A stretch of 62,204 nt of DNA, from NCBI RefSeq assembly GCF_004010195.1, contig NC_057755.1:4586859-4649062 (forward strand). Direction: 5' to 3'. The translations under genes were made by a program, and so were the position numbers. Below are positions 4,550 to 27,627 of this stretch, one piece after another. The DNA comes from Chiloscyllium plagiosum. Taxonomy: Eukaryota. Below the pieces are notes generated by a model. That model was not told the DNA's origin. It saw nothing but the letters and a program-made list of their open reading frames with translations, and searched no databases. The stretch's first letter is position 1, and every line of letters begins with the position of its first letter.

Positions 4550-5700
4550 AAGCAGATTACCTCAGATTACTACAGGACCTTCATCAGATGGCCTGAGGAG
4601 TGGCAAATAGAGTTTAATTCAGATCAATGTGAGGTGGGACATTTCGGAAAGTCAGTGTGGATTCATTGTGCCGAGTGGCCTGGTCCCACACTGCAGGGAT
4701 TCTCCCATTCTCGTCCCAGAGAACTGGAGAATGGCAAATGGTACATGCTACTTGAAAAAAGGTTGTAACAATTGGCTCAGCAATTCTAGCCCAGTCGGGT
4801 TAACTTTGGTAGTGGGAATCTTCCAGAAACAACAGTTCTAGATAGGGCTAGTATTCCCATGGAAAAATACTGGTTCATTTGGAAGGTTCATCATGGATTC
4901 GTTCAAGGAGAATCATCTCGAACTAACTTGCTTGAGTTTCTTGAAGAGGAAGGGGATAATGAAGCTGGAAAGGGGTCAGAAAAGGTTTCCCAGGATGTTG
5001 CTGGGAATGGAGAGTTGGAGCTAGAAGGTGAGGCTGGATACGCTGAGACCTTTCTCACAGCAGCGTATGAGGTTGAGGGGTGACCTTCACGAGATTGATG
5101 AAACCATGAGGGGCATCGATAAGGTGATTAGCAAAGGTCTTTTTCTTAAGGCAGTGGCGGGGGGGGGGCAGTTCAAAACAAGGGGGAAGATTTTTAAGGT
5201 GAGAAGAGAAAGGTTTGAAAAGGACATGGGGGGGTTCAATGTTTTTTTGACACAGAGTGTGGTTAGTGTGTGGAATAAACTGCCAGAGAAAGTGGCAGAC
5301 GCAGACACAGTCACAACATTGAACAGATATTCGGATAAGTCCATGAATAGGAAAAGGTTAAGAGGGATATGGGCCAAACGCAGGCAGATAGGACTGGTTT
5401 AGTTTCGGAACATGGTTGGTGAGGACTAGTTTCTGTGATGCATGACTCGATGAGCTAACTCAGAAGGTTGATAAGGGTAACGCTGTTGATGTGGTGTACA
5501 TGGACTTCTGTTCAATATAGTGTCACACAACAAGCTTGTGTGGAAAGGTTCAGGTCAGGGAGTAAAAGGGTTCCGAAACAGACTGAAGGAGAAGAAACAG
5601 GGGAGGAACGGTGAAGGGGTAACAGGACAAAGGTTTGTGGTGGAGTTCTCCAGGGGTTGGCATTGGGACCTGAGCATTTTCTAATATATAACCACCCGCA
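4550..5700 (+). mobile_element. Cluster of decayed CR1 LINE fragments
   Basis: Remnant peptides HGFVQGESSRTNLLEF, VVSVWNKLPEKV and VDVVYMDF. Confidence 0.75.
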
Positions 5701-6461
5701 CCTTGGTGTGTAGGGGACCATTTCACAGCCTGTGAATGATACAGCACTTGGGTGCAGTGGAAACGGCAAGGGAGGCAGGTTGGTTACAGAACCTCTGGGC
5801 AATCAGGGACAGGCAATGAATGCTGGCCACATCCCAATCAAGGAATTAAATTAAAAAATGGGCACAGCAAGTTGGCAGAGTGGGCAGGCAAGTGGCAGCT
5901 GAAGTTCAGTGTGGAGCAGCGCGACGCGATGGATTTCGGAAGAACGTGCAGAGACAGCACAACAGAAAAGGTATTATTCTGAAGGGCATGCAGGTGTGGA
6001 GAGAGCTGGCTGCATCTGGGTAACTGGTCACTAAAGGTGGCAGGACAGGGACAGAGTGAATCCAGCCTGGGCTCACGGAGAGTGTATTTGAGATTTGTTT
6101 CCACAGTGTGCCCGTGGTGGAGATCAGCATACTGTGAGTCACAGCCACCATCGGGAAGAGGAAGGATAGGTTCCTGCTGGCCTGGCTGGAGTCCTACAGG
6201 GAATACCGCTGGCCCTGAATATAATTCCAAGACTCCCAGCCTGAAAGCTTGTGTCTATGGATATGCAGCATGAACAGGCTCAGGGTTAATCCTGTGCCCC
6301 AGTTTTGCCTGTGATAGTGAGTGAGGGGTGAAATGAAGGCATCGCTCCCTCCCAGTCATGAGGGCGGGTTAACCAATAGGAAGAGCCGATTCGGCTGTGG
6401 CCAATTTTGGACAATGCACTGAGCGTGTGCGGTCACAGCGGGGAGGGGGACAGACACCCAC

Positions 6462-6581
6462 CTGGAACTGCTCGTTTTCTGTCTCGTCCAGAAATGCTCT
6501 CAGAGTACTGATCTCATTCTGCAGCTTGTCCACGTCCTCGCTGTTCTGCTCCATGGTCTTGAGGATCTTATCCAACTCATC
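6462..6581 (-). CDS. CENPQ: CENPQ-like coiled-coil exon (DELDKILKTMEQNSEDVDKLQNEISTLRAFLDETENEQFQ)
   Basis: cctcag|GAT...CAG|gtgggt, 120 nt, phase 0-0, heptad-like pattern. Confidence 0.88.
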
Positions 6582-7600
6582 CTGAGGCACAAGGAGAGGC
6601 CGAGTCATCCAGGAGACACTGAATTTGGGGGAGGGGGTGGGGGTGCAGGGAAAGCAGCGAGCTGCAGTGTGTCCCTTCAGCCCATCGTCCTGGAGCCTGG
6701 AATGTAGCGGTCGGCAGCACTCGGTCAGGGTCAAGCCCCTCGCTCTGGAAAACCCACACATTTCGGGCAGAGCAAAGAGGGTCTTTCACCGAGTTGCTGA
6801 CCCCCCTCCCCTCCAGGCGCAGTTGGTTGTTTCGTCTTGGTGTGCGTCCCCGGGCGGGGATCAGACCGGAGAGCGCAGAATCCCGGGATACACAGCATCG
6901 TGGAGATGGGGAACGATTTCCTCACACAGCCGGTGCCCATCCTGTAGAATTCTCTCCCACAGAAAGGTCTGGCGGCCGGGGCCACTGAGAACATTCCGGA
7001 AAGCAAGAAGTCAGACAACGGCCAGGTTATAGTCTGACGGGTTTAATTGGAATCAGGAGCTTTCGGAACCTCATCAGGCGACAAAGCTCATGGTTTCAAA
7101 TACACCAGTGAGACTATCATCTGGGGCAGTGTAACTTCAGACATTGTGTTCACCCCAGTCCAACACCCAGCACCTCCACATCGCACATTCGAGAGAGAGA
7201 TGGAGGGAGAGGGAGAGGGAGAGGGAGAGGGATACACTTTTGGATATTAAACATGTCGAGAGCGTGGAGGGAATGCGGGAATACGGCTCGGAGATAGAGG
7301 GTCAGTCAGGGTCACATTGAATGGCAGAACAGGCTGAGAGGGGCCGAATGGCCTACTCCAGCCCGAGTTTTGATGCTTTAAGAGGGGAACTGGGTAAATC
7401 CAGGCAGGCAGGATGGTTCGCATGGGGTTTGGGGTTGACTGAGGGGGGAATGAGACTAAAATAGATGAGGTCTGTAAATAGCTAACAGCCCTAGGAGGAG
7501 CCTGATGGGTAAGATTCTCCATAGAGTGCGATGGAGATCGGGAAGCTCCTGCCTCGATTGGAATGTTACTAACTGGGTGAGTCGTGTTCGAGTTAAATAC

Positions 7601-7730
7601 CTGCAAGACTCGCAGGGAGACTTCATCCTCCTTCAGGTATTCTTCCTTGGACACACAGGACCTCTGGACATTTCTCAAATCTTTCAATTTGCTCACAGGT
7701 ACTTTGAGGGAGGAACATCGATCCAGAAAT
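7601..7730 (-). CDS. CENPQ: CENPQ-like exon (FLDRCSSLKVPVSKLKDLRNVQRSCVSKEEYLKEDEVSLRVLQ)
   Basis: ttctttccag|A TTT...CAG|gtattt, 130 nt, phase 2-0. Contains the C.xLKVP hallmark of CENP-Q. Confidence 0.9.
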
Positions 7731-7935
7731 CTGGAAAGAAGGAAAAGCACGAATGTTACTGGGCAGGCCTGAAAAATGCCAGGAAAGCTGAATGTTTGAA
7801 GAGTGCTGCTCTGGGCTGAAACGTTCCAACTACCGCTGAATGTGGGCTCTGCAGCTTCAGAGAGAGAGAGGGACTACAGCAAGATTCCCCTTCCCTCCAC
7901 ACGGCACGGCGAAGATTCCCAGCAGCCACACCTAC

Positions 7936-8004
7936 CTGTGCTTTAACTGGCTCAGATGTTCCTGACTGGCCTCCATCTTGGAACCCTTCAGTGGTAGCGC
8001 ATTG
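7936..8004 (-). CDS. CENPQ: CENPQ-like exon (NALPLKGSKMEASQEHLSQLKHR)
   Basis: tttcccgcag|C...AG|gtaggt, 69 nt, phase 2-2. Resembles IQYHLNFLKKR. Confidence 0.88.
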
Positions 8005-8523
8005 CTGCGGGAAATCAGAGCGCAAGTTTTAAAATCGGCTGCAATTTGGCACAACGAGAGATGAAAATAAAACACAGAGACGTGAGCGAGACGGGATTTG
8101 GAATAGGGAGGGGAGCAGGGTGGCAACACAGACAACCCAAACGTTCCCCGAGCACCACTGACCACAGGGCAGGAGGCTACGCGCGCACTATTCCACATGT
8201 GGCGACATGTTACTTCTGCAGGGGTCAGGGTTGGTGGGCAGTAACTGGAAGCCAGTTACATCTGGGGAGGGAGGGGTGAACGGGGGGGGGGGGGTAGAAG
8301 TGCACATGGGTCGAGAGGAGAGCCCTTTACGAAACACAGCAATAATTTGACAGGTCTCGGCCTGAGAAAAGCCTCAGGCTCTTCAATCCTCCAGTCTGGT
8401 GTCACACTGATAAATGCACCTTCTCCTTTGAGATCCTGGAAAGACTGACATCAGGCAGTTCCCAACCACTCTGTGCTCAAGGCCAATCGAAGCCATTGAT
8501 GAAACATTATGATGGGTACATAC

Positions 8524-8632
8524 TATATAGCAATGTCGATTGCTGCAGCGATGTAGTCTCTCGTACTCTGGGGTAGTGGTTTCCATCGAGCAGTGTTCAC
8601 ATTGGGCACCTTCCCCACCTTCTGTTTGGGAT
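8524..8632 (-). CDS. CENPQ: CENPQ-like exon (PKQKVGKVPNVNTARWKPLPQSTRDYIAAAIDIAI)
   Basis: ttttctgtgcag|AT...TA|gtatgt, 109 nt, phase 1-2. WKPLPQSTRDYI matches the CENP-Q WQPLSKSTRDHL motif. Confidence 0.9.
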
Positions 8633-8899
8633 CTGCACAGAAAAGAGCGCAGGTTACTGCAGTGGTCTCCGCTGTCATGGAACAAGCTCACCAAGATCGG
8701 TAACAGTGTCTGATGTGGGAGAAAGAATGGTGATTCTGCGCCTGACCGAGAAAGCTTTGTTTTGGAGCAGAAGCCAGTGTGTCAATAAACACAGCGATTT
8801 CAGCACCGCATGGAAGCTAACACAGCGTTTCGATCAACTGCCACTCAATAAGATCACAGCGCAACCGCTTACTGTCCAGCCCTGAGAACCTTTCACTCT

Positions 8900-9650
8900 T
8901 TCCCTTCTCCAGAGGATCTTCAAGGATTCGGCTTCTGAGGCAGAGAGTACAAACAAACTCAGGAGCCTCCGAGAAAAACAAATCTTCCTCCGTTTGAAAT
9001 GGACAACACACCATTTTTGAAATGGTGACACCTTTGTTCTGGATTCTGTCAGGACGGGAAACATCATCTCCACGTCCATCCTGTCAGGGCCCCTCGGGAT
9101 CTCATGCTCCCATCAAGTCACCTCTTACTGTTCTAAACTCCAGCAGGTACGAGCCTGACCTGTGCAAACATTTCTTGTGAGACCACCAAGCCCATTCCAG
9201 GTCTGAGTAAAGTTAACTTTCTCTGAACTGCCTCCAATACATTGAGATCCTTCCTTCGAAAAGGGGACCGATACTGGACAAAGCACTCCAGATGTGGTTT
9301 CACCAATGTTCTGGACAACTGAAACATGACCTCCCTATTTTTGCATTCAATCCCCCTTGCAATAAACAACAACATGGTTTTAGCTTTCCTGATTCCCAGT
9401 TGTACCTGAATACTAAGCTTTCAGAATAATTCACACATGAGGATACCCAGATTCCCATGCAATCTCTCACCATTTATGCTTTTTTAAAAATTCTTCCTGT
9501 CAATATTCTCCATATTCCCACATTGTGCTCCATTTACCAGACTTATTTCTTCTTTCTCCCCCCTCTCATGTCACCTTCACAATCTAATTTCCTCCCGAGC
9601 TTTGCGCCAGCAGCAAACGTGGCCACGATACCTCCAGTTCCTTCATCCAC
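8900..9650 (-). mobile_element. Decayed CR1 LINE
   Basis: LVKPHLECFVQYRSP...LEAVQRKLT remnant. Confidence 0.8.
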
Positions 9651-9758
9651 ATCCTCCCTCTGCCCCCAGCTCTCATTCCCCACTGTCTTGCTCATTTAAG
9701 ACAATTTCCACTTGCTCCACATGATAATTGATCGGAAACACAACACAAGAGTGCTCAC

Positions 9759-9813
9759 TCATCTGACTGGAATTGCCTGCGGTTTTTCTCTTCTTTGTGG
9801 CAGGCTGTTCATT
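9759..9813 (-). CDS. CENPQ: CENPQ-like exon (NEQPATKKRKTAGNSSQM) with a KKRK NLS-like motif
   Basis: ctgcttacag|AAT...ATG A|gtgagc, 55 nt, phase 0-1. Joins 8632 in frame. Confidence 0.8.
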
Positions 9814-11229: not shown

Positions 11230-11256
11230 CTCAGATGCTTTCTTCCTCGGCTTCAT
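11230..11256 (-). CDS. CENPQ: CENPQ-like first coding segment (MKPRKKASE) within exon 11230-11328
   Basis: Acceptor tgtttcttcag| at 11328, accATG Kozak context at 11256, donor GAG|gtcatg, phase 0. The whole exon is open in frame, so a start further upstream is possible. Confidence 0.65.
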
Positions 11257-11562
11257 GGTCTTGGCTCTCCAGTGTCTCTGCTGGTTTTCCAGCCGTGGTT
11301 GGTTCTGGGGTTTCAATTTGGTTCGTTCCTGAAGAAACAGAAAATTAAGAGACAATTTTGAGCCACATCCACCTCAGTCTGTTTTCCCAATCAGCCACAG
11401 CTAAACCCTAGCATGACTTTGACAAACATTTGCACTTGCACGATAGGTGTGACTGGGGTCCGAGAAGGAACCAGGAATCCCCAGGTTTTATCTTAACCCC
11501 TTGGGAAGTGACAGTGTTTCTGCTGGACTTGCAATCCAGCAACTCCAGTATTGTTCAAAAGG

Positions 11563-11650
11563 GAGCTCTTGTGGTGCAGTGGTGGTGACTCTGAGCTAGA
11601 AGGACTGGGTTCAAGACCCACTTCCTCTAGAGGTATGTCCGAATATTTTA
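11563..11650 (+). mobile_element. tRNA-derived SINE head remnant
   Basis: A-box-like gtggtgcagtggt and B-box-like gggttcaagaccc. Confidence 0.5.
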
Positions 11651-12019
11651 ATTAGAAAAATAATTTATATTCTCCCCCTTTGCTCAAGCTTCTCGTTAGG
11701 CTGGGCTCATGCTCTCAGTGTACACCCAAAGATCAATGTGTTAGTATAGTGGCCCTGAAATCTCTCTCTGAAATCCAGTTTCCCACTCGGAGCTCGACTC
11801 CAACGTAAAGGCGAATGACAGTGTGCAATCTGCTCTGACCATTCAGCTGTTGCCGGCATGTTGGATAATAGCTCAGCACATCTCTAACCCTGTGAACAGC
11901 AACAAACTGGTTTCAAAAACAAAACTTGCATCTTTAACACTGGAGGAAATGTCCGACAGCACGTCACAGAACCGGAACCAAACAAAATATGACACATTCA
12001 GGGATACCTCATCATCACA

Positions 12020-12275
12020 GAATCTTTACAGTGTGGAAGTGGGCCATTCAGCCCATCAAGTCCCACTCAGATCCACCCCGTAACCCCTCATTTCCCATGG
12101 CAAACCCACCTCACTCACATATCCCCAGACACTACAGGGCAATTTCCCATGGCCAATCCACCCTAATCTGCACATCCCTGGGCACTATGGGACAGTTTCC
12201 CATGACCAATCCACCCTAATCTGCACCTCCCTGGGCACTATGGGACAATTTACCATGGCCAATCCACCCTAACCT
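12020..12275 (-). repeat. SINE tail plus 53-bp SINE-derived tandem units
   Basis: ctgcacatccctgggcactatgggacaatttcccatggccaatccacccta units. Confidence 0.85.
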
Positions 12276-13394
12276 AGTCAGCAAAATTAGGGCGCATGGT
12301 ATTGGGGGCAAAGTACTAACTTGGATTGAAAGTTGGTTGGCTGATGGGAAACTCCATTTAGGAATGGCAGGCAGTGACCAGTGGGGTCCCGCAGGGATCA
12401 TGCTGGGACCGCAGCTTTTTATAATATATATTAATGATATAGAAGATGGTATTAGTAATAACATTAGCAAATTTGCTGATGATACTAAGCTGGGTGGCAG
12501 GGTGAAATGTGAGGAGGATGTTTGGAGATTACAGGCTGACCTGGACAGGTTAGGTGAGTGGTCAGATGCATGGCAAATGCAGTTTAATGTGGATAAATGA
12601 ATGGTTATCCACTTTGGTGGCAAGAACAGGAAGGCAGACTACTATCTAAATGGAATCAATTTAGGTAAAGGGGCAGTACAGAGAAATCTGGGTGTTCTTG
12701 TACACCAGTCAATGAAGGTAAGCATGCAGGTACAGCAGGTAGTGAAGAAGGCTAATAGTATGCTGGCCTTCATAACAAGAGGGATTGAGTATAGAAGCAA
12801 AGAGGTTCTTCTGCAGCTGTACAGGGCCCTGGTGAGACCACACCTGGAGTACTGTGTGCAGTTCTGGTCTCCAAATTTGAGGAAAGACATTCTGGCTATT
12901 GAGGGAGTGCAGTGTGGGTTCACGAGGTCAATTCCTGGAATGGCGGGACTACCTTACACTGAAAGACTAGAGCGACTGGACTTGTATACCCTTGAGATTA
13001 GAAGACTGAGAGGGGATATGATTGAGAGGGGATAAGATTATTAAAGAATTGGACACTCTGGAGGCAGGAAACATGTTTCCGCTGATGGGTGAGTCCCGAA
13101 CCAGAGGACACAGCTTAAAAATAAGGGGTAGACCATTTAGGACGGAGATGAGGAGAAACTTCTTCACCCAGAGAGTGGTGGCTGTGTGGAATGCTCTGCC
13201 CCAGAGGACAGTGGAGGCCCAGTCTCTGGATTCATTTAAGAAATAGTTGGATAGAGCTCTCAAGGATAGTGGAATCAAGGGTTATGGAGATAAGGCAGGA
13301 ACAGGATACTGATTAAGGATGATCAGCCATGATCATATTGAATGGTGGTGCAGGCTCGAAGGGCAGAATGGCCTACTCCTGCACCTATTGTCTA
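12276..13394 (+). mobile_element. 5'-truncated, fairly young CR1 LINE (RT C-terminal half plus 3' UTR), disrupted
   Basis: LFIIYIND...SKFADDTKLGG...ALVRPHLEYCVQFWSP...RRNFFTQRVV with a few frameshifts; inserted inside a 53-bp array. Confidence 0.95.
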
Positions 13395-13548
13395 TCCCTG
13401 GACACGATGGGACAATTTCCCACAGCCAATCCACCCTAATCCGCACATCCCTGGGCACTATGAGACAATTTAGCATGGCCAATCCACCCTAACTTGCACA
13501 TCCCTGGGCACTATGAGACAATTTAGGATGGTCAATCCACCATAACCT
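13395..13548 (-). repeat. 53-bp SINE-derived tandem units (continuation after the LINE)
   Basis: Same unit as 12090-12275. Confidence 0.85.
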
Positions 13549-14157
13549 CAGATGTACAGCACGGAAATAGACCCTTTGGTCCAACTCGTCCGTGCCAACC
13601 AGATGTCCCAACCCAATCTAGTCCCGCCTGCCAGCACCCGGCCCATATCCCTCCAAACCCTTCCTATTCATATACCCATCCAAATGCCTCTTAAATGTTG
13701 CAATTGTACCAGCCTGCACCACTTCCTCTGGCAGCTCATTCCATACACGCACCACCCTCTGGGTGAAAAAGCTGCCCCTTTGGTTCCTTTTATATCTTTC
13801 CCCTCTCACCATAAACCTATGCCCCTCTAGTTCTGGACACCCATACCCCAGGGAAAAGACTTTGTCTATTTACCCTATCCATGCCCCTCATGATTTTGTA
13901 AATCTCTATAAGGTCACCCCTCAACCTCTGACGATCCAGGGAAAACAGCCCCAGCCTATTCAGCCTCTCCCTGTAGCTCAAATCCTCCAACCCTGGTAAC
14001 ATCCTTGTAAATCTTTTCTGAGTCCTTTCAAGTTTCACATGAAACTTTCTACACCAAGGAGAGTAGAAGTGAATGCAATATTCCAACAGTGGCCTAACCA
14101 ATGTCCTGTACAGCCGCAACATGACCTCCCAACCCCTGTACTCAATACTCTGACCAA
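13549..14157 (-). mobile_element. CR1 LINE 3' fragment
   Basis: LYRTLVRPLLEYC...RLRGDLIEIYKIMRG and FFTQRVVRVWNELP. Confidence 0.93.
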
Positions 14158-14606
14158 TCCCTGGGCACTATGGGACAATTTAACATGGCCAATCCACCCA
14201 TAAGACCATAAGACCATAAGACATAGGAGTGGAAGTAAGGCCATTCGGCCCATCAAGTCCACTCCGCCATTCAATCATGGCTGATGCGCATGGTCTTAAC
14301 CTGCACATCCCTGGACACTATGGGACAATTTAACATGGCCAATCCACCCTAACCTGCACATCCCGGGGCACTATGGGACAATTTCCCACGGCCAATCCAC
14401 ACTAACCTACACATCCCTGGGCACTATGGGACAATTTAGCATGGCCAATCCACCCTAACCTGCACATCTTTGGACTGTGGGAGCAAACTGGTGCACCCGG
14501 AGGAAACCCATGCAGACAAGGGGAGAATGTGCAAACTCAACACAGACAGTTGCCCGAGGCTGGAATTGAACCCAGGTCCCTGGTGCTGGGAGGCAGCAGT
14601 GCTAAC
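14158..14606 (-). mobile_element. tRNA-headed V-domain SINE (HE1-like) with expanded 53-bp units and a short embedded CR1 tail (14198-14297)
   Basis: The minus strand reads GGCAGCACAGTGGCTCAGTGGTTAGCACTGCTG...GGGTTCAATTCC, then TTTGCACATTCTCCCC...GGGTTTCCTCCGGGTG. Confidence 0.9.
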
Positions 14607-15384
14607 CACTGAGCCACTGTGCTGCCCTTTTGATTGTGTGATCAATAGTTTGGTTAATGGGTAGGCTTTCAACAGCACCGTGGAGGGAGAGAACGGGAGA
14701 GAGGGAGACATGTGGTTTCAGGAGAAAATCCCAGGGCCTTGGGTCAGGCTAAAGATGCTAGAGTGACTGGTGATGTCTTTAATGTTGCAGATACTTCATT
14801 GTCAAACCTGGACAAGCTGAAGTCTAAGGACTGTCAGACTGTAGGTGGTCATACTGAGGGGTAAGATAGGATTCTCCAGAACAAGTGCTCACGTTAAACG
14901 ATGAGATGAGGTAAACCCATGTGCTTGACCCCAGTTTCGAGCAATGCAAAGACTGGCATTCACAAGTTCCTTCAGTGGAGAAGGACATCTCCGAGGGAGA
15001 AAATGGATGCCTCGCCAAAAGGAGACATTAGTGAGAGAAACAAAACCCTTGGTCAACGATGTGGATCGAGAGCAATATTTTACAGTAGGAACTGGAGCTG
15101 GAGAGTCAGAAGGTTGAGAGATAGAATGTGGATCCTGAAGGAGAGGGCTGATAGAACACAGGACTTTGGATGAGCTTCAGGACAAAAGGCAGGGTCAGAG
15201 TGTGGAGATACTGTGGTCAGTAAGCGACCTGTTGACTCCTCAAAGTACGTCCACCAGCACAAGTCAGAAGTGTGATGGAAGACTCCCCACTTGCCTGGAT
15301 GGGTGCAGCTCCAACAACACTCAAGAACTTCGACACCATCCAGGAGAAAGGAGCCCGCTAGATCAGGATCTGCTCCAAAATCTG

Positions 15385-15555
15385 GAAGCTCGTGGATACC
15401 GTTGTGATACCTGCAGGAAGTGGGTGAAATTCGAGCAGCTGCAGCTCAGAGTTTATGAGCTGGAGGCTAAACTACAGACACGGCGATGTTTCAGGGAGGG
15501 AGAATGTCACCTGCATTCTATGTACCAGGAGGCAGTCACACCTCTGAGGACAGAG
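15385..15555 (+). mobile_element. CR1 ORF1 N-terminal fragment (CxxC plus leucine zipper)
   Basis: CDTCRKW...LQLRVYELEAKLQT..FREGE..L.SMYQEAVTPLR is typical of CR1 ORF1. Confidence 0.7.
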
Positions 15556-15924
15556 TGTCCTGTTGGTGTGACATGGTGGCTCAGTGGTTAGCACTGCTGC
15601 CTGACAGCACTTGATCCTGGAAATAGTAAGAATTAAAAGAGAGGGAAGAACAATTACCAGGAAAGCAGGAACTGAGTAAATTGCTGGCATTGCAAGTTGA
15701 CAAATCCTGGGTTTGGATGGATTTCATCAGAGGGTCTTAAAAGAAGCAGCAGGTAAGGTAGTTGATGTGTTTGTTCTAATTTTTCAAATTCATTAAATTT
15801 GGGAAGGTTCCTTTAAATTGGAAACTAGCTTATGTTGTTCCTTTTTTGCAACAAGGGAGGGAGACAGAGGGCAGGAAATTAGGCTGCTTAGTTGAATGTG
15901 TTATTGGGAAAATACAAAACAAGG

Positions 15925-18075
15925 CCCTATGGTCCACTCAGCCATGCGCCAATTCCTAATCCTTATTTACATCTGCTACTTCTTTCCCATATTCTGTTTT
16001 TATCCCTCTGTTTGCCTCCTGTTCATGTCTCTATCACCCTCTCCAATGGCACAGTGTTCCAGGCACCCACTACCCTCTGTGTGAAAGATTTTCCTCACCA
16101 CCTCTCCTGTAAACTTTCCCTGTCATCTTGAACCTGTGCATTCTTGCAATTGACCTTTCCACCCTGGGAAAAAGCCTCTGACCATCCACCCTCATATTTT
16201 GTAGACCTCTATCAGGGATCACCCCCTAAACCACCATCGTTCCAGAGTTTATCCAACCTCTCCTCAATAGTAAAACCCTCCAGACCAGGCAATATCCTGG
16301 TAAACCTTCTCCAAAGCATCCACAACCTTCTGGGAGCGTGGCGAGCAGAACAACATGTAATATTCCAAATGTGGCTGAACTAAAGTTTTATACAGCCATC
16401 ACATGGCTGCCAGCTTTTATATTCAATGCCCTGACCGATGAGGCAAGTGTGCTGTCTGCCTTCTTGAACACCTTTTCTACCTGTGTTGCCACTCTCAGGG
16501 ATCTGTGGACCTGTATGTCCAGATCCCTGTGTATGTCAATGCTCCTAAAGGTTCTGACATTTCTTGTATAATTTGTACCTGATTTTGATATTCCAAAATG
16601 CATTACCTCACATTTTTCCGGATTAAACTCTAGCTACGATTCATCTGCCCAAATCTGCAATCGATATTCCCGCTGTGTCCTTTTACAATCCTCCTCACGA
16701 TCTCCATCTCCGCCAATTTTGGTGGATACTTATTAATCAGACCATCTACATTGTCCTCTGGATCATTTATACATTACAAACAACAAAAGTCCCAGCACTG
16801 GGGTCCCTGTGGAACACCACCAGTTACTAGTCTCCATTCTGAAACACATTCATCCACCGCTACTCTCTGTCTTCCACGACCAAGCCAGTTTTGTATCTAT
16901 CTAAGATATCATGAGACTCTACCTTTTATACCAGCCTTCCATGAGGTACCTTATCAATTACCTGACTAAAATTCCATGTAGACAACATGCACTGCCCTTC
17001 CATCATCAATCATTCTTTGTCCCTCCTCAAAAAACTCAATCAAGTTGATGAGACATGACCTTCCCCACACAAACCCGTCCTGCTTACCAACTAACAATTC
17101 CATTTGCTTCTGAATGGAAAAACATCCTGTCTCCCATTATCTTTGCCAACGGTTTCCCCACCACTGACATCAGACTCACTGGCTTGTCATTCCCTGGATT
17201 ATCTCTGCTTCCCTCTTAAACAAAGGAACAACGTTGGTCATTCTCCAGTCCTCTGGATCCTCACCTGAGGCCAAAGAGGATGCAAAGCTATCTGTTAAGG
17301 CCCCAACTATTTCGTTTCGTAATCCCACAGTATCCTGTGATTGATCCCGTCTGGCCTTGGGGACCTGCTGACCTTAATGCTTTCAAGACATCCAACACTT
17401 CCTCTTTCATTACATCGGAGTATTCACACACCCTTCCCTAACCTCAACATCTTTCACGTCCCTCTCCTTGGTGAATACCGATGTAAAATAATCATTAAGG
17501 ATCTTGCTCATTTCTTCTGGCTCCACACACAACCTCCCTCCTCGATCCTTACGTAGGCCTATCCTTTCCCGAGCTATCCTCTTGCTCCTAATATATGTAT
17601 AAAATGCTTCAGGATTCTCCCAAACTTGCTAGCCAAGGATATTTCATAGCCCATTTTAGCCCTCTCAACTTGCTGTTCGAGCCCCTTCCTATTTTCTCTA
17701 TATTCTTCAAAGGACTTTGCCTGTTTCTGGTTGCCAAGACCTTAGGTATGCTTCCTTTTTCTTTTGACTAAGTTGATGACTTCCCCTGTCATCCGAGGTT
17801 TCTGAATCCTATTGTTCATTTTCACAGGAACATGCCTGTCCTGCATTCTAATCAACTGGTCTTCAAAAGACCCCGACGTGTCAGATGTAGATTTACCCTC
17901 AAACAGCTGGTGCCAATCCACATTCTCCAATTCTTGTCTAATTCAGTTAGAGTTGGCCTTCCCCCCAATTTAACACCTTCATCCAAGGTTCACTCTAGTC
18001 CTTATCCTTTGGTCTCTGAAAATTTATGGAATTATGGTCACTATTACCAAAATGCTCACCCACTGAAACTTCGAC
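15925..18075 (-). mobile_element. CR1 LINE fragment nested in the opposite orientation
   Basis: Remnants DLDIQVHRSLRVATQVEKVFKKA and VDWHQLFEGKS. Confidence 0.8.
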
Positions 18076-18189
18076 GTTAGAAAATATTAGAAGTAATTAT
18101 TAAAGACATGAAAACAGAGCACTCGGATACGTTCAATGTAATCACGCAGAATTGGCGTGGGTTTGTTAAAGGGAGATCATGTTTAACTA

Positions 18190-18404
18190 CAGGTAGTTTG
18201 TCTATAACACAATGGTTGTGTTGTTCTGCAACCCTGCTTATAGAAAAATTGCGCATTAGAAACAGCCCTTAGTATTGGCAACGTAATCGTATTACAGTCA
18301 GTACACTTTTTTAAAAATCACGCTTTAGAAACAGGGTCCTCAAATTCATCAATCGCTTTACAGTGAATTTGTGTTAACAAAACACGTTATAGCAGAACGA
18401 CCTG
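18190..18404. mobile_element. Tc1/mariner-type (pogo/Tigger-like) MITE
   Basis: TA|CAGGTAGTTTGTCTATAAC...GTTATAGCAGAACGACCTG|TA: imperfect terminal inverted repeats with a TA duplication. Confidence 0.8.
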
Positions 18405-18409
18405 TAATT

Positions 18410-18820
18410 TAAGTTGAGAGGTGACCTTATAGAGGTTTATAAAATCGAGAAGTATGGAGAGGCTTAATGGTATCTGTCTTTTCACTAGGATAGGGGATTT
18501 CAAGACTAGGAGGCATATTTTTAAAGGTGAGAGGAGAGAGATTCAAAAGAGACATGAGGGACAAACTATCTTCTTTACAAAGGGTGGTTCGTGTGTTAAA
18601 ATGAACTTCCTGAGGAAGTGGTGGATGTGGCCGCAATTGTGTTTCAAAGGCATTTGGATAAATACATGAGCAGGAAAGGTTTGGAGGGACATGGGTGGGG
18701 AGCAGGAAAGGTTTGGAGGGACATGGGTGGGGAGCAGGCAGGTGAGACTCATTTAGTTTGGGATTATGTTCGGCATGGACTGTTGGACCGAAGGGTCTGT
18801 TTCCCTGATGTAGGACTCTA
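18410..18820 (+). mobile_element. CR1 3' fragment nested in the older LINE
   Basis: LRGDLIEVYK remnant and 3' UTR, with an internal ~31 bp duplication at 18668-18737. Confidence 0.8.
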
Positions 18821-20615
18821 AGCAACGTGTGCTATAGATAAAGGGGAACCAGTGGATATATAATATTTGGCTTTCCAAAAGGTATTTGATAAGGTGCCAC
18901 ATAAAAGGTCATTGCAAAAAAATAAAAAAATCCTGCAAATGGTAACATATTGGCATGAATAATTGGCTGATTAACAAGAAGCAAAGAGAAGGAATAAATG
19001 GGTTATTTTCAGGCTGACAGGATGTCACGAGTGGGGCCTCAACTCTTCACAATTTACAGAAATTATTTGGATGCAGGGACTGAAGCTATGTTAGCTAAAT
19101 TTACTGATAACACAAAGATAGGTAGTAAATGAGTTGTGAGAAGGACATAAGAACTCTATAAAGGAACATAGATAGTGGGCAAATATCTGGCAAGTGGAAC
19201 ACAGTGTGGGCAAGTCGGAAATTGTCCATTTTAGCAGAAAGAATAAAAAAAGCATATTATCTAGATTATGAGAGGTTGCAGAGGTCTGAGATGCAGAGAG
19301 ATCTGGGTATCCTAGTGCACTAATTGTAAAAGGTTAGTATGCAGGTCTCGCAAGTAATCAAGAAGGTCAATAGAATGCTATGATTTCTTGTGAATTACAT
19401 GAAAGCGTAGTAAGGTTATGCTACAATTACACAGGGCATCGGTGAGACCACATCTGGGAGTACTGTGCACAATACTGGGCACTATACTCACAAGGACGTG
19501 AACGCATTGGAAGCAGTTCAGAGAAGGTTCACAGGGTCACTGGACTCAAAACATTAAACTCTGCTTCTTCTCTCTCCAGATGCGCCAGACCTGAGTTTTT
19601 CCATCACTTTTTTGTTTCATTTCAGCTCTCCAGCATCTGCAGTTCTTTGTTTTATATAAATAGATTAATACTTGGAATGAGCAGATTGTCTTATGATGGA
19701 GGTCTAGGCCTATTCTTTCAGATGTTTACAAGAGTCAGTGGTGACTTCATTGAAACATAACAGATCCTAAATAGACTTGACCAGGTTGGTGAAGAAAGGA
19801 TGTTTCCTCATGTGGGAGAAACTAGAACTGAGGTAAGAATTTAATATTAATGGGTCACCCATATGATAGCGATGAGGAAATATTTTTCCTCTCAAGTGGT
19901 TGAGAGTTTTTGGAATTCTCTTCCTCAAGAAGCAGTAGATGCAGGATCTTTAAATACTTTTAGGGCAGAGGTGGAGAGATTTATCGTGACCAAGGGGGAG
20001 AGAAATTATTGGAGATATGCAGAGTTAAGATTAAAAGCAGATCAGCCCATGATGTTATCGAATGTCACATCAGATTCAAATGGTCTACTCCTGTTCCTTG
20101 TTCACCTGCCCATCGCAGTAACCCACCTCACACCCTCAGCATTCACTCCCTCAAACAGCAATGCCATCACGTGTACCAATAACAAGATACACTGCAATGA
20201 TCCACCATGACCCTTACCACAGCATTTTCTAAACCAGTAACTTGCTTCACCTAAAAGGACAAGGGCAGCAGGAACATTGGAGCACCATCATCCTTTTGGA
20301 GCCAAACACCATCCTGACTTGGAACTATATCACCATCCCTTTACCGTCCTTGGGATAAAACCCTGGAAGTCCCTTTCTGAAAACACTACACTGCAGCAGG
20401 TAACCACCACCATCTCAAGGGCTAGTAGGGATCAATTTGATAAGCCTTAAGGACAAACTCATATATATCACCCGATAAGTCATTGTGTTTACATAAATCC
20501 AGGAAAAGATATTTTAGCTTGCTTTTGGATCAATTTGGACATGCTGAGCAGCATGTCCAATGGACACTTATTTTGACCTGTCATTAAGAATGGCATGTAT
20601 TATATTGATACCAAG

Positions 20616-20680
20616 GGTGGCACAGTGGCTCAGTGGTTAGCATTGCTGCCTCACAGCGCTAGGGATCCGGTTTCGATGCC
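20616..20680 (+). mobile_element. SINE tRNA-like head
   Basis: ggcacagtggctcagtggttagcattgctgcctcacagcgctagggatccggtttcgat. Confidence 0.8.
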
Positions 20681-20952
20681 TTCAAGGATTCACTGTCTTC
20701 TGGAAGACACTGTTTCCTGCTGGGATAGCTTGGACTAGTGGAGTTCAAACTCAGGAGTAGCAACATGAGTGGTGCCCACCACTAACAGAATGATGCTGTC
20801 AAGCCAAAGTGATATCCTGCTATCTCAAAAATAAGTAATGTGCTCTATGAATTTTAGTGCCAGTGAGATGCCAGGTATGTTGGCAGCATGCCCCAAAGAC
20901 TGGTTGTACTACATGGCCCTCTGGTGTTCACCACAATCAAGATACTGACTAT

Positions 20953-21117
20953 GAAAAAGTGAGGACTGCAGATGCTGGAGATCAGAGTCGAGAGTGTAGT
21001 GCTGGAAAAGCACAGCAGGTCAGGCAGCATCCGAGGAAGCATTCCTGATGAAGGGCTCATGCCCGAAACGTTGATTCTCCTGCTCCTCGGATGCTGCCTG
21101 ACCTTGCTGTGCTTCTT
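20953..21117. mobile_element. Short Penelope-derived fold-back element with a hammerhead-like core and 14-bp target-site duplication
   Basis: aagatactgactat at 20939-20952 and 21118-21131; inverted arms; CTGATGA-GGGC/GCCC-GAAA at 21045-21068. Confidence 0.75.
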
Positions 21118-23274
21118 AAGATACTGACTATACCCAACAAGCCCACAGTCGCAAAACTATATCTAACACGGAGATGTTTCTGCAATCAGACAATATTTGC
21201 TGGACAACCTTAAACATGTAAGGAAGTATGCTGACAATCTATACAGTACTCAGTTGGACTCTCAGTGTGGTGCACAAGAAACTACATACATTAGTACGCA
21301 GGGCCCTGTTTTTTGCAGACTTTTACTTACCCTGTACCAGTTTCAACTTACAAAAAACAGACAGCCATTCGCTGTCTCCTTTCTCAGGGCAATGTCTTGA
21401 TCAGAGCCAACCTGCCTTGTTTAAAATTTAAACAAAGTTTGCTCTCAACCAATCAGTATTAACGGCTGTATTATCCATGGCAACACCTCTAACAGAGTCC
21501 ACTTGCCAACTAATCGATATTCTCTCATGCAGTAAAAATGTTGGTTTATTCCTCAAATTTGTATCCTTGCAAGATGGCTTAATAAGTGCAAAGCAAAACG
21601 CTCCAACAAAAAATGCCGTATATGATCACTGTTCCCTAAACATATCCCTCCTGACACCTGATTCATCTCATTCTACAGAACCACATCCAGCAATGCCTCT
21701 CTGACTCGAGATCAGAAAAATACTGATCCACAAAACTCTCCTGAAAACACTTGAAACTCGTTAGCCTTTGCATAACTACCATTTTAGTGTAATTAAAACC
21801 CCCGGTTATCACCATTCTATATTCTTTGAACCCCTTTGAAATTTTCTTGCAGGTTTGGTCTTCTGCACCTTTCCTATGGCCCAAGAATAACTCTAGCAGT
21901 GCAAACAAATGGCTTCTTTTTAATCTCTAAACAAACAGAATGCTCAGAAACAAAATCTCTCTCTCCTGTACTATAATATTCTCCATAATCCACAGCATCA
22001 TCTCTCCCTCTTTCTTTCCAGCCTTACCTTTCCTGAAAACATTAATAAATAGAATTTTTAGAACATTTTTGAGCTAGGTCTCCATTATCACCAAGACATC
22101 GCTTTGTCATCTAGCTACTTACATTGACAGCTTACCATACTTGGTTCTAACCTTTTGTGTTTGCATATAAACCTAACATTAGACTCTATCAATAGATATC
22201 ATTGCCATCCCTCTTACTCTGATCCCTATCTAATCCTTTACCAATTCTTACTCTACTCCCAACTGTCTGTCACAAATCTCTTGTTCACCTTGTTTTCATT
22301 TTGGGGTACACCCAGTCAAGACTGACCCCACTGTTACAATATTAGTATGTAATAGACCTATAATCATTGTCCACCATCTTTCCAGCCAACCATTCATCCC
22401 TTCTGTTCCTTTCTTTTTATACTTTATTAGTGGCTGGCAGCATCTACACTGTGAAGCCTCTACGAATCTTATATGCTTTGCTGAGATCATCCCATCTTTT
22501 TTCCGAAATCCATTCTACACAAATCACTTCTTATTGATTTTCTAGGTTCTACCTGGTCAATCCTGGTTGCAGACTCTCTCTTGGTTAGCTAGGGTATGGA
22601 AAAGGAAAGAATTTCATATTCCAAGTGTGATTTCACCAAAGTTCAATATAATTCCAGCAAAACTTACTTTCTCGGAAATTCAAGCCTCTTACAATAAAGA
22701 GTAATATGCCATTTGTTTGTTCATTGCCTTGTGTACCTGCATGTTAACTTTCTGTGATCTCAGCAAAATTTCCCTGATCACCATTATATAAATTTGGTTT
22801 CTTCATTCTTTCTACAAAATTAATAAAGCCACATTCCCCACATCATATTCAATTTACCAACTTTTTTACATCTTCCTCAGAGCTTACCTACCCAGCTGGC
22901 TTTGCATAATAAGCAAGTTTATTGTTAAATATGTTTATTGTTACTTAACCACTGAATCAGGATTTTACTCTCCCATTAAACCTTTGTGATTCCCTGAATC
23001 ACCAGAGAGGTGGCACAGCGTATAAAGCCAAGAGTGTTAGGGTCGTTAGCTCAACACATTTGCTCACCATTCAATTGCAATATGATTGATCTGTATCTAA
23101 ATCCATCTCCTTACTTTGGTTACATGCACCTTAACATCCTGACCAAACACATACCTATAAATCTTACTCTATTTTGCTACCAAAAAAGAAACAATTAAGT
23201 ATTACCTTGCATTCACCTTTAAAACAATTGGATTTCACAGGTTTCAAAGCAGTCATCCGCAAGATATTAATATT

Positions 23275-25914
23275 CTAAGGCAAAGGCTCCCTTGGCCATA
23301 TAACGCTTTCACGTCGAGGCTCTCTTTGCAAAGCTGTGCTATCAGATGTAGCACCTTCACCCGCAGTGTTTGGATCAGCCTGTGTCTGTGCGCTCTGGGG
23401 GCCACGTTGAGGCCTACCTCGTAAAGCTGCGTTATCAGGGAGAGGGCCTTCCCCTTGTACCGTACGAGGCGCTGGACCCCTTTGGGGCTCTGTGGTCTGG
23501 CAAGCACTGCGTGGCCACAGAACACTTTCACGAAAAGGTTCTCTTTGGAATGCTATGTTGTCTTCCTCCTGCACTACCTGAGGAATTGGAGCCCTCTGCG
23601 ACTCTGCACTCGGAGGCAAAGCGTCTCTGGGCCACAGTATGCTTTCCCGTCGGGGCTCCCTACTCAAAGCCAAGTTATTTGGTGTACGGTTCCGCTGCAA
23701 TGCTGCATTTGGTGCAGACTGGTCTCTTGACCAAGTAATACTTCTACGGCGAGGATCCAAAGGCAACACTACATTAGCAGGGGCATGGCCTCTCGGTATC
23801 ACTATATTTGGGGGGAATGAGTCTCTTGGCCAAACAACACTTTCACGACGAGGGTCTCTTGGCAATGCTATTGCATTAATATCAGAATCAAGGACCCTCT
23901 GTAACAATGCAGTAGGGGGACGATCTCTTGGCCAGGCGACACTTCCACGTCGAGGGTCACCAGTTGGTGCTATGTTTTGAAGAACACGGTCCCTGTGTAC
24001 CAATGCATTAGGAAACAGATGATCTCTTGGCCACACAACACTCTCACGCCGAGGTTCTCTTAGCAATGCTACGTTATTATTATCAGTGGCTGGGTCTCCC
24101 TGTGACAATGCATTTGGGGGTGGTTGATTTCCTGGCCGTCCAGCACCTCCGCTTCGGGGATCACACTGTGCCGCAATGTTTTGAGGAATAATGTCCCTCT
24201 GTAGCAATACGTTTGGGGGAACTGCAACACTCCTTCGTTGAAGATCTCTGGTCAAAGCTCTATTAACGGGAACAGGATCTCTCTGCTGTGCTCTGTCTTG
24301 TGGAAAATCAAAATCTTCACACTGACGTGCACCAGGAAACACACTTCCAAGATCAAGAACTGAATTATTATTTGAATTGTGATTAAAGGCTCGTGCACCG
24401 GGGCCTCTTTGTGGTGGTTCATTTGAGACGCATTGCAGCAAATTATTGTTGTTGTTGATATTATCTGAATCCAAACCACTTGGCTGCTGAGCCAAGTTCC
24501 CAAACCTACATTCGTCAAACAATGGATCAACTGGATCAAGATCCTTTGACAGCAATAAAGGGATAGGAGTTTTGCTTTGTGGCCGAATACAACTTTCAGA
24601 CGGCTCTCTGCTAGGTAATGCAGTTTCAGCAGGAGTACAGTCCCTCTGTAGTTCAGTATTTTGTACTGCTCTCTCTTCTGGCCAACCAGCAGCAATCTCA
24701 CTTACCAGCACTCTTGGTCTGATCGGGTTTGTTCCCAGTAATGGATTATCAGGCTCAAAATTCCTGTGCAGCCCTATATTCGGAGGAAGGGGGATTTGTG
24801 GCCAAAGAATGTATTCACTCTGATGCTCTCTCTGCAGCACTATGTTACTACGTATAGGAATTCGACACGTACTCTGAAATCTAGATTCACTTTGCGGTAC
24901 AATATTACCACGCTGACTTGCACTTGGTATAAGAGCTAAATTTTGATGCCAGGGGTAATTCTGTAAATTCCTGACCTGCCTCTGAGCTCCTCTTGGAAAG
25001 GGAGTAGATTCATTTGATGGCCCTCTGCCCAAAACATCGATATCAGGCTCAGGGTATCTATGCAATGGACGAGTTTCTCGACGAGGGTATCTCCGCGGTA
25101 CAAACTCAATTCCTTGCAAGTTCAAACCAGATCCCTCTAGTGGCCACAACAGAGGCTGGCTCCAATTTGAAGGTCTGGAAGTCCCTGCACCAAAATCGTT
25201 CTGGTTACGTTGCACTTTTGTGCTGCCACACAATGGGCCACAAAATGCTTTTGCAACAATACTCTTTCTAAATCGCTGTGTTTTTCTTATAGCAGCTTTA
25301 TTTTTACGCTGACGTAACGCTTGGTGACCTGGCAATGCTCTCTGACAAGATGCACATGACAGGATAACTTTTTTCTGACAAGGTGCTCTTACACCAATTC
25401 TCAGTTGATTTTTCCTTTTCTTGCAGATGGTGGTCCGCGGTTGGCGGCTTGTTCTCAAATGAACATGAGCTAACCTTTTGGAAGTAGGACACTGTCGACG
25501 GGATGCTCTCCTGAAGTTTCTTCTGCTATATGGCCTTTTCGTACAAACAACTTTACGCTTACAAGGTGCTCTCTTAACAGCTGCGTTTTGCTTAACAGGC
25601 TTTCTTTTACATGGAGCCCTTTGTCTGGTGGACGCCTTCGTACGCTTTTTCGGAGCAGTTGCTCTTGCACGAAGAGCACGTTGCCGACGGGACGCTCTTG
25701 CACAAGTTGCGAGACGGCCGGCTCTTGCAGCTCGTCTTTGATTGGCAGCTCTTACACGGGCAGTCCTTTTTGGGCGCCCTGTCCTGGTGGTGGTGGCCCT
25801 CCTTTGCCTTGCGGAAGTCGTTGATTGGCGTCTCCTGTTAGCGCCACATGGCGCGCTGGTTTGTCGCGCCCGCGCCACTCTGCTGCTGAAGGTTTCAGTC
25901 ACGACCCTTGCCAG
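23275..25914 (-). CDS. Uncharacterised ~880-aa ORF: Arg/Lys/Cys-rich basic N-terminus, disordered middle, C-terminal PRRES[VI]xWP repeats
   Basis: 2.6 kb stop-free frame in non-repetitive, TE-free sequence. Repeats are conserved at the protein level despite DNA divergence. Candidate acceptor cctttag| at 25915. AATAAA at 22934-22939 and 22918-22923. No in-frame ATG, so the start is unresolved. Confidence 0.75.
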   Translation of the reverse strand: MARVVTETFSSRVARARQTSAPCGANRRRQSTTSARQRRATTTRTGRPKRTARVRAANQRRAARAGRLATCARASRRQRALRARATAPKKRTKASTRQRAPCKRKPVKQNAAVKRAPCKRKVVCTKRPYSRRNFRRASRRQCPTSKRLAHVHLRTSRQPRTTICKKRKNQLRIGVRAPCQKKVILSCASCQRALPGHQALRQRKNKAAIRKTQRFRKSIVAKAFCGPLCGSTKVQRNQNDFGAGTSRPSNWSQPLLWPLEGSGLNLQGIEFVPRRYPRRETRPLHRYPEPDIDVLGRGPSNESTPFPRGAQRQVRNLQNYPWHQNLALIPSASQRGNIVPQSESRFQSTCRIPIRSNIVLQREHQSEYILWPQIPLPPNIGLHRNFEPDNPLLGTNPIRPRVLVSEIAAGWPEERAVQNTELQRDCTPAETALPSREPSESCIRPQSKTPIPLLLSKDLDPVDPLFDECRFGNLAQQPSGLDSDNINNNNNLLQCVSNEPPQRGPGARAFNHNSNNNSVLDLGSVFPGARQCEDFDFPQDRAQQRDPVPVNRALTRDLQRRSVAVPPNVLLQRDIIPQNIAAQCDPRSGGAGRPGNQPPPNALSQGDPATDNNNVALLREPRRESVVWPRDHLFPNALVHRDRVLQNIAPTGDPRRGSVAWPRDRPPTALLQRVLDSDINAIALPRDPRRESVVWPRDSFPPNIVIPRGHAPANVVLPLDPRRRSITWSRDQSAPNAALQRNRTPNNLALSREPRRESILWPRDALPPSAESQRAPIPQVVQEEDNIAFQREPFRESVLWPRSACQTTEPQRGPAPRTVQGEGPLPDNAALRGRPQRGPQSAQTQADPNTAGEGATSDSTALQREPRRESVIWPREPLP

Positions 25915-27627
25915 CTAAAGGATGGAGTATGAAGGACTATGGTGTACGACGGACTATGGTGAACTTGGCTGCTGGGGAAAAGGTCGGTTACGTTGCTCGC
26001 CGTGACTTGGTGACTCCTGGGTGACTGTGCTTCAGTACTTCCTTGGCTTGATCCACTTGGGTGGTCACCTCTGCGGCGCAGTTGCTGTCTTGACGGCAGT
26101 TCCTCCGTTGGGTTGCTTCTCTGGCCTCTTGGTGATGGCGGGTAGGCGTGCTCACCCCAGCTGGGTACCTGCTAAATTAAACCAGGGGGAGGAGCGGCTT
26201 GATGGATCAGATGGCTTTGCCGCCTCTCGGCATCTCTGCCGCCGTTTGCGTTCGGAGCACCGGAGATGGCGCCTTTCGCCGTCGGGCAACAACCTTTGAC
26301 CAATACCGGCGTGAAAGAGAGGTAAGAGAGAAAAAGCAACAAAAAACAAAAGAAAAAGAGGGTGGGTGGGGGGGGGGGGTGGGTGCGTGGTNNNNNNNNN
26401 NNNNNNNNNNNNNNNNNNNNNNNNNNNNNNNNNNNNNNNNNNNNNNNNNNNNNNNNNNNNNNNNNNNNNNNNNNNNNNNNNNNNNNNNNNNNNNNNNNNN
26501 NNNNNNNNNNNNNNNNNNNNNNNNNNNNNNNNNNNNNNNNNNNNNNNNNNNNNNNNNNNNNNNNNNNNNNNNNNNNNNNNNNNNNNNNNNNNNNNNNNNN
26601 NNNNNNNNNNNNNNNNNNNNNNNNNNNNNNNNNNNNNNNNNNNNNNNNNNNNNNNNNNNNNNNNNNNNNNNNNNNNNNNNNNNNNNNNNNNNNNNNNNNN
26701 NNNNNNNNNNNNNNNNNNNNNNNNNNNNNNNNNNNNNNNNNNNNNNNNNNNNNNNNNNNNNNNNNNNNNNNNNNNNNNNNNNNNNNNNNNNNNNNNNNNN
26801 NNNNNNNNNNNNNNNNNNNNNNNNNNNNNNNNNNNNNNNNNNNNNNNNNNNNNNNNNNNNNNNNNNNNNNNNNNNNNNNNNNNNNNNNNNNNNNNNNNNN
26901 NNNNNNNNNNNNNNNNNNNNNNNNNNNNNNNNNNNNNNNNNNNNNNNNNNNNNNNNNNNNNNNNNNNNNNNNNNNNNNNNNNNNNNNNNNNNNNNNNNNN
27001 NNNNNNNNNNNNNNNNNNNNNNNNNNNNNNNNNNNNNNNNNNNNNNNNNNNNNNNNNNNNNNNNNNNNNNNNNNNNNNNNNNNNNNNNNNNNNNNNNNNN
27101 NNNNNNNNNNNNNNNNNNNNNNNNNNNNNNNNNNNNNNNNNNNNNNNNNNNNNNNNNNNNNNNNNNNNNNNNNNNNNNNNNNNNNNNNNNNNNNNNNNNN
27201 NNNNNNNNNNNNNNNNNNNNNNNNNNNNNNNNNNNNNNNNNNNNNNNNNNNNNNNNNNNNNNNNNNNNNNNNNNNNNNNNNNNNNNNNNNNNNNNNNNNN
27301 NNNNNNNNNNNNNNNNNNNNNNNNNNNNNNNNNNNNNNNNNNNNNNNNNNNNNNNNNNNNNNNNGGGCGGGGCGAGGCGGGGCACGTGGTGGGGGGGCTG
27401 GGAACGCCACGGGGTGGTGAGCGGGGAAAGGCGGAAAGAGAGCAGCGCGAGCAGTAGCCCCGCCCCCCCCACGCAACGTGCGGGCGCCTGGAAACCGACG
27501 GGAAACGGGGCAAATCACGTGACCCCAATGTCCCGCGGGCGGCGGCGGGGATTTTAAAACCGCCCGCTGTGGATTGTGGAGGGTGAGGGGAGCTCCATCA
27601 TTCCCGCCCACACACTTGTTCCCGCCC
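25900..27627. promoter_or_regulatory. CpG island / probable bidirectional promoter (interrupted by gap 26392-27364)
   Basis: High CpG density. GGGCGG boxes from 27365, CACGTG 27383-27388, TCACGTGAC 27515-27523, CCAAT 27525-27529, GGCGG-N4-TTTAAA 27544-27558. Confidence 0.75.
26392..27364. other. Assembly gap (973 N)
   Basis: N run. Confidence 1.

Follow-up and report, generated by a model that had tools for sequence, protein, structure and literature searches.

What does a reading frame of 879 sense codons, without a single in-frame ATG, do ahead of a vertebrate kinetochore gene? The frame lies on the minus strand at 23275..25914 of a 62,204-nucleotide (nt) stretch of the Chiloscyllium plagiosum genome (contig NC_057755.1, positions 4,586,859 to 4,649,062; hereafter the window, whose first letter is position 1), on the strand of CENPQ and 11.9 kb from exon 2 of that gene. 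Judging from its sequence, this open reading frame (ORF) is probably a real, unannotated coding sequence, and on balance we lean towards its being the first cistron of a dicistronic mRNA, from which a basic, disordered orphan protein of ~98 kDa would be started at a near-cognate codon, with CENP-Q reached by leaky scanning. The observations behind this proposal are an open frame, a splice junction, the lack of any in-frame AUG, weak contexts of the upstream AUGs, and repeats spaced in triplets.

Coding signatures of the AUG-free frame

An earlier reading of this locus (the original prediction) had singled out a 2.6 kb open frame on the CENPQ strand, ~12 kb upstream of the CENPQ coding exon, without a recognizable domain and related neither to a transposable element (TE) nor to a known gene, and each of these points stood in the searches run. 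The frame is open throughout its 879 codons; the five other frames across the region hold 24-71 stops each, and the longest ORF in third-order Markov simulations (n=1000) averaged 167 codons and reached 343 at most. Frame-blind comparison of the ORF DNA with itself returned 29 matching segments, all of them (29/29) offset by multiples of three, against 0 in 3 shuffles, and mismatches between the repeats concentrate at the third codon position (0.41, versus 0.31 and 0.28 at the others). Furthermore, seven repeat cores give a ratio of non-synonymous to synonymous substitution (dN/dS) of 0.25 when read in frame, versus 1.1 and 1.6 for the other frames, a comparison in which a low in-frame value is favored because the cores were picked by protein motif; one arginine column of the repeats uses CGG, CGA, CGT and CGC.

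Four public runs were compared with window positions 22300-26325: X11 (organism C), with contigs near letter-for-letter identical to the window, X5 (organism B), ~3% diverged, X1, and the raw single-cell run X15. In organism B the ORF carries 0 indels, whereas 383 nt of leader carry 2, of 17 and 29 nt and neither a multiple of three (P 0.016). None of the 37 ORF differences listed for organism B creates a stop or a Met, which, because 40 of 79 differences are listed in all, excludes stops there for about the last 478 codons only.

Searches for relatives came back blank. Pfam recognized no domain in the ORF protein, phmmer against 1.84 billion representatives returned 0 at E 0.001, and word-index searches found nothing for residues 250-879 among proteins of 483-1539 amino acids (aa; 8000 candidates scored) or for residues 560-879 among 30-482-aa proteins (7585 candidates). 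ESM Atlas held no usable match to the whole protein (best score of the C-terminal part, 0.75), IMG/VR no relative of the C-terminal 341 aa, and Rfam no match to 22800-27627. These blanks do not date the gene, because no other shark genome was among those searched. The ORF appears single-copy: its DNA at 24300-26300 matches nothing but itself in its own genome, the remainder of the window bears no similarity to it, and the C-terminal 341 aa find, besides themselves, four weak places, all in contig C95738, which we rejected as relatives because the contig is satellite (one of the four loci was translated). Neither a recognizable TE or viral domain nor multiple copies were thus found as signs of TE or viral derivation, a remote origin being outside this scope. 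Literature on CENPQ upstream ORFs, Chiloscyllium CENPQ and bicistronic CENP-Q in sharks yielded nothing on the locus among the matches listed.

The predicted protein combines a basic N-terminal region with seven C-terminal repeats (Table 1), and weaker repeat copies occur near codons 353-392 and 564-612. An RRx(S/T)-hydrophobic motif appears 6 times against 0.4 expected, always within the repeats; we take these RRxS-hydrophobic sites to be of PKA/Aurora-type consensus. FoldIndex is negative over 81% of windows, no hydrophobic segment was found, and AlphaFold2 without an alignment gave a mean predicted local distance difference test score (pLDDT) of 34.9 and one helix at residues 49-82. A docking motif for protein phosphatase 1 (RVxF) was tried on the repeats and rejected, with 1 match against 0.3-0.85 expected. 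Our guess, drawn from composition, is a disordered, phospho-regulated protein that might bind nucleic acid or chromatin, with a basic head and a tail of repeated phosphorylation sites.

Transcript structure and start contexts

The downstream gene is CENP-Q: the protein of RefSeq isoform X1 matches PF13094 (E 3.6e-10), and a RefSeq protein labelled Chiloscyllium plagiosum matches exon 6 at 100% identity. Contigs of runs X11 and X5 depart from the window at 23205, and their loose ends are the first letters of CENPQ exon 2, placing the junction between ORF exon and exon 2 in 2/4 runs and two species. RefSeq isoform X1 (XP_043539002.1) has the same junction, with a start AUG at 23256, 18 nt behind the ORF stop, and 23206-23256 joined to exon 2 and exons 3-9 rebuilds it letter for letter. 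The junction is thus read from loose-end contig letters and RefSeq isoform X1. The runs carry no RNA label on record; we read the X11 and X5 contigs as RNA-derived because the joint spans an 11.9-kb GT-AG intron, whose donor lies 69 nt behind the UAG. Therefore the 3' end of the ORF is exonic, annotated as CENPQ leader, and since the ORF lies within an exon spliced to exon 2, both ORFs would sit on one mRNA.

This goes against the expectation that the ORF is nested in CENPQ intron 1, as up to 1509 nt of its exon are joined to exon 2 in contigs and RefSeq isoform X1 agrees; for isoform X2 the ORF may be intronic. In RefSeq isoform X2 the upstream exon is closed by a GC donor and lies in sequence that resembles a remnant of a long interspersed nuclear element (LINE) ORF2 on the other strand. 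Contigs of X11, X5 and X1 (3/4 runs) cover nearly all of 23205 to ~26300, free of internal joints and crossing 25914 unspliced. The idea that one locus serves two unrelated proteins also seems to hold, from one transcription unit; an either/or choice by intronic polyadenylation is little supported. Two AATAAA do lie at 336 and 352 nt past the stop, where the original prediction had put them (~340 nt), but at least two occur in 5.8% of shuffles, a count near chance, and the stretch around them (22705-23109) is covered by none of the 4 runs, whose contigs drop rare forms. The CpG island is likewise present, but with CpG observed/expected ratios of 0.65-0.91 from 25001 to ~27600 it overlaps the 5' third of the ORF instead of ending before it.

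Among 33 in-frame ATN codons none is ATG (P 4e-4), and 124 codons of the ORF stand one step from it. AUG density is 6.1/kb in the ORF versus 20.6/kb in the intron, with 16 AUGs on the sense strand versus 38 antisense. All 16 are out of frame, a total not significantly below the 20 of a synonymous shuffle (P 0.13); none of them (0/16) has A at -3, where 5.4 are expected (synonymous shuffle P 0.0007). Counting sites capable of AUG, 0/15 are realized with A at -3 versus 16/34 without it (pooled P 0.0007; by frame 0.015 and 0.06), and the avoidance is found in both parts of the ORF (0/10 and 0/5). In the CENP-Q coding sequence, taken as a control, A stands at -3 of 8/16 internal AUGs. Not one of the 19 AUGs ahead of the exon-2 AUG has A at -3, and the exon-2 AUG has it. 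The start options of the first ORF are near-cognate codons only, and the CENP-Q start context is the stronger one. The best candidate, a putative GUG start at codon 13, has C-4, A-3 and G+4, which PMC9082881 describes as conserved where non-AUG initiation is efficient.

Table 1. Features of the CENPQ locus in the window
Feature	Position	Strand	Details
CENPQ exons 3-9	1840..9813	-	9759-9813, 8524-8632, 7936-8004, 7601-7730, 6462-6581, 4160-4228, 1840-1983
CENPQ exon 2	11230..11328	-	AUG 11256 (ACC AUG A), earliest with A at -3; start used in the Hemiscyllium ocellatum annotation
Intron, 11.9 kb, repeat-rich	11329..23205	-	Donor AAG/GTAATA, acceptor TTCAG/GAA
Alternative upstream exon, coding part	15295..15339	-	RefSeq isoform X2
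Two AATAAA in the CENPQ intron	22918..22939	-	Candidate signals only; number near chance
Leader exon end, 69 nt	23206..23274	-	23 sense codons in frame with ORF and CENP-Q; weak-context AUG 23256 is the RefSeq isoform X1 start
Orphan ORF	23275..25914	-	879 codons + UAG, no in-frame ATG; 98.7 kDa, pI 11.5 if read from first codon
Seven repeats	23278..24066	-	Core R-(E/D)-P-R-R-E-S-(V/I)-x-W-P-R; Trp at codons 628, 661, 695, 728, 761, 800, 873
Basic N-terminal region, codons 1-230	25225..25914	-	Arg+Lys 31.7%, Asp+Glu 0.4%, 12 Cys; sole predicted helix at residues 49-82
Best candidate start, putative GUG, codon 13	25876..25878	-	C-4, A-3, G+4; GC-rich hairpin directly after
First codon of frame, CUG, weak context	25912..25914	-	Pyrimidine-rich stretch ending UAG directly before, splice-acceptor-like; contigs of 3 runs cross unspliced
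Transcribed leader	25915..26347	-	Contig runs 22 nt past 26325; one AUG (26233), opening 8 codons; species/alleles differ by non-triplet indels (17 and 29 nt)
CpG island, likely promoter region	25001..27627	.	Interrupted by 973-N gap (26392-27364)

The leader varies at a 17-nt tandem unit (25933-25962), with one copy fewer in run X11 and one more in organism B, where a 29-nt insertion also brings an additional short AUG-started ORF (frame read by hand). Upstream of the gap, at 27500-27570, the CpG island contains the E-box-like GTCACGTGA and TTTTAAAA; the latter we take to be like a cell cycle genes homology region (CHR). Elsewhere in the genome, a lone decayed last CENPQ exon (C46:5943473-5943616, plus strand; 53% identity, in-frame TGA) lies 1.35 Mb away, and the 29 kb before it contain neither other CENPQ exons nor a copy of the ORF. 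The remainder of the window includes two long GA-rich tandem arrays (28900-33100 and 35800-43000), which may be collapsed or an artifact of assembly; the plus strand of the second lacks T for ~6 kb (AT skew 1.0), and this array generates spurious ORFs of >2,300 codons. Two Mod_r (VPS37-type) pieces on opposite strands, 61208-61741 (+) and 44467-44949 (-) (C-terminal part E 7e-7, N-terminal part E 0.019), could be a pair of paralogues, a partial copy in inverted orientation or an assembly error.

A proposed dicistronic mRNA and its rivals

Under our proposal, one mRNA would carry the whole ORF together with CENP-Q. A fraction of the scanning subunits would initiate the orphan protein at a near-cognate codon, for which GUG 25878 is the likeliest; others would slip past the weak AUGs, or reinitiate once a short ORF (1-56 codons) has ended, and arrive at the CENP-Q AUG after a presumptive scan of ~3.2 kb. 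Reinitiation after a long ORF is poor, and an in-frame AUG would commit the ribosome to just such an ORF, which would explain why that class of AUG is absent. The decay rule places the critical stop 50-55 nt ahead of a junction; at 69 nt the ORF stop lies beyond it, so the mRNA would also gain protection from the ribosomes that arrive at CENP-Q. According to a preprint (bioRxiv 10.1101/2024.04.06.588385), start-codon stringency increases when mammalian cells are in mitosis, and we speculate that such an increase would favor CENP-Q over the orphan protein.

Several points weigh against this proposal. Over 23278-24713, where differences from organism B are almost fully listed, 11 are synonymous and 19 non-synonymous, and the between-species dN/dS of ~0.66 (by hand) is not different from neutral (P 0.10-0.18), a ratio that fits a fast-evolving protein without proving constraint. 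The tests at -3 were devised post hoc, and copies of a repeat do not count as independent sites; two new AUGs appear in organism B, one having A at -3 and closed at once by a stop (a single codon), the other in weak context and opening 35 codons; 19 AUGs precede the CENP-Q exon-2 start; and the hairpin sits nearer to GUG 25878 than the optimum of 14-16 nt. The homologue searches given above were all blank. Among transcripts, the longest junction contig holds 1509 nt of the exon's 3' end and none spans the whole ORF plus the junction, contigs cannot phase molecules and drop rare forms, and ~2% of run X15 gave 1 read pair. Finally, junction contigs have depths of 78.7 and 152.8 (averaged with CENPQ exons) versus 12.6 and 4.5-7 upstream, and shorter isoforms may therefore supply most CENP-Q.

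That depth step leads to the alternative that survives best, which we nevertheless consider unlikely: two overlapping isoforms, of which a long, rarer mRNA would give the orphan protein and little CENP-Q, in the manner of long undecoded transcript isoforms (LUTIs), and shorter mRNAs, starting in the 3' part of the ORF or using the X2 exon, would give CENP-Q. The different upstream exon of RefSeq isoform X2 and the many AUGs to be scanned past (19) fit this arrangement. However, the 3' bias that poly(A) libraries carry accounts for the step as well, contig breaks vary by run (24183, 24713) with no common internal start seen, and codons 1-350 avoid AUG no less clearly (0/10 vs 6/11) than those downstream; furthermore, LUTI repression needs upstream ORFs (uORFs), and the CENPQ leader is AUG-poor.

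It is improbable that an AUG exon hidden in the assembly gap is spliced to the acceptor-like site at 25914 and that an mRNA with the ORF alone terminates at the AATAAA of the intron, an arrangement near that of the original prediction. The pyrimidine tract and UAG do end exactly where the frame opens, 973 N are unseen, and at the donor run X1 offers only one short unspliced contig (23137-23342). Yet contigs of three runs cross 25914 without a loose end, the AATAAA tract is uncovered and its hexamer count near chance, and a separate monocistronic mRNA would need no purge of AUGs; a hidden AUG exon alone would leave the mRNA dicistronic.

Very unlikely, in our estimate, is stop-codon readthrough fusing the orphan protein to CENP-Q (~1,166 aa), conceivable because the two frames coincide. 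The ORF, 47 linker codons and CENP-Q share one frame interrupted by a single UAG, 5.4% of shuffles leave the linker open (not counting the 1-in-3 chance that the frames match), and its exon-1 part stays open in organism B. On the other hand, UAG-AAU-AUU fits none of the readthrough types listed in the excerpted PMC3542737, linker folding is unremarkable (z -0.8) with no Rfam match, the linker changes seen are non-synonymous, and the CENP-Q annotation of H. ocellatum begins with the Met in exon 2. Least probable of all is an untranslated frame, an AUG-poor long 5' untranslated region (UTR) left by an old tandem duplication or a dead gene: it would account for the missing start codon, the missing homologues and a between-species dN/dS not below 1, but not for repeat offsets that are all triplets, repeat cores that change mostly at synonymous sites, an ORF without indels in organism B or a length far beyond chance.

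Comparison with known systems

The dicistronic proposal can be set beside several known designs, given here as the excerpted articles describe them. LUTIs are long 5'-extended mRNAs whose leader governs translation of a downstream ORF through uORF-dependent repression (PMC8153250). The proposed shark transcript would resemble them in its long 5' extension with a downstream ORF; in contrast, strong AUGs are avoided in its leader, which holds a frame apparently constrained at the protein level. It does have 19 upstream AUGs, depleted and none in strong context. ZBED6 in ZC3H11A is a large single-exon ORF on a host transcript that also holds host coding sequence (PMC5834713), as proposed here, but it derives from a DNA transposon and is expressed via intron retention, whereas the shark ORF has no TE domain and its 3' end is spliced as an exon. 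The mammalian bicistronic and non-AUG genes CERS1/GDF1, SNURF/SNRPN, POLG/POLGARF and EIF4G2 (PMC4705651, PMC9082881) offer second proteins in 5' leaders and near-cognate starts with C-4, A-3 and G+4; however, POLGARF has 260 aa and overlaps POLG, the EIF4G2 GUG starts the main ORF, and an AUG-free first cistron of the shark's size is not described in the available text of these two articles. All three groups match less well than the Drosophila genes discussed below.

Purging of AUGs has clearer precedents. Rice tungro bacilliform virus ORFs I-III combine a non-AUG first start with an AUG-purged region and a downstream ORF reached by scanning (PMC3542737), the combination proposed for the shark ORF; the viral case involves ~895 nt without another AUG and is aided by shunting, and the shark's ~3.2 kb with 19 weak or medium AUGs compares poorly with it, a further point against our proposal. 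Green-algal bicistronic genes have a weak first start and under-represented start codons before the second ORF (PMC11291117), but their first ORFs have a median of 291-357 nt and start at AUG, unlike the 2,640 nt and no AUG here.

In Drosophila stoned and Snapin, the first ORFs lack in-frame internal Met, as downstream translation needs (PMC2978622, PMC3372440, PMC11291117). The shark locus would share their two non-overlapping ORFs, a first ORF free of in-frame internal AUG, and a weak first start followed by a stronger second one. It differs in that its first ORF has no AUG at all, its host is a vertebrate kinetochore gene and both ORFs share one frame; no search suggested a sequence relationship, and the shark proteins are predicted from sequence. 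StonedA is a protein of ~850 aa. It is restricted to one lineage and combines an N-terminal domain of basic character with repeats towards its C-terminus (PMC3373503), features that the predicted shark orphan protein would share.

If translated, the ORF would give a ~98-kDa vertebrate protein absent from annotation and from the databases searched, missed because it has no AUG. If the proposal is true, a vertebrate kinetochore gene would join the insect, algal and viral cases of the stoned-type dicistronic design, its scanning distance being longer than in the compared examples. Our boldest version, that of a vertebrate stoned-type, operon-like gene making an ~870-aa chromatin-binding, Met-free protein from a GUG start, with >3 kb of scanning and M-phase stringency switching output to CENP-Q, and representing a hidden class filed as UTR, is tentative and, to our minds, rather doubtful. 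A translated ORF would also suggest a simple screen of annotated 5' UTRs, for long frames that lack Met and carry repeats spaced in triplets, and a testable link between the mitotic start-codon stringency of the preprint cited above and CENP-Q supply. By analogy, the closest known design is that of Drosophila stoned and Snapin: the shark transcript would work like a stoned-type mRNA, a likeness of architecture and not a proven membership.

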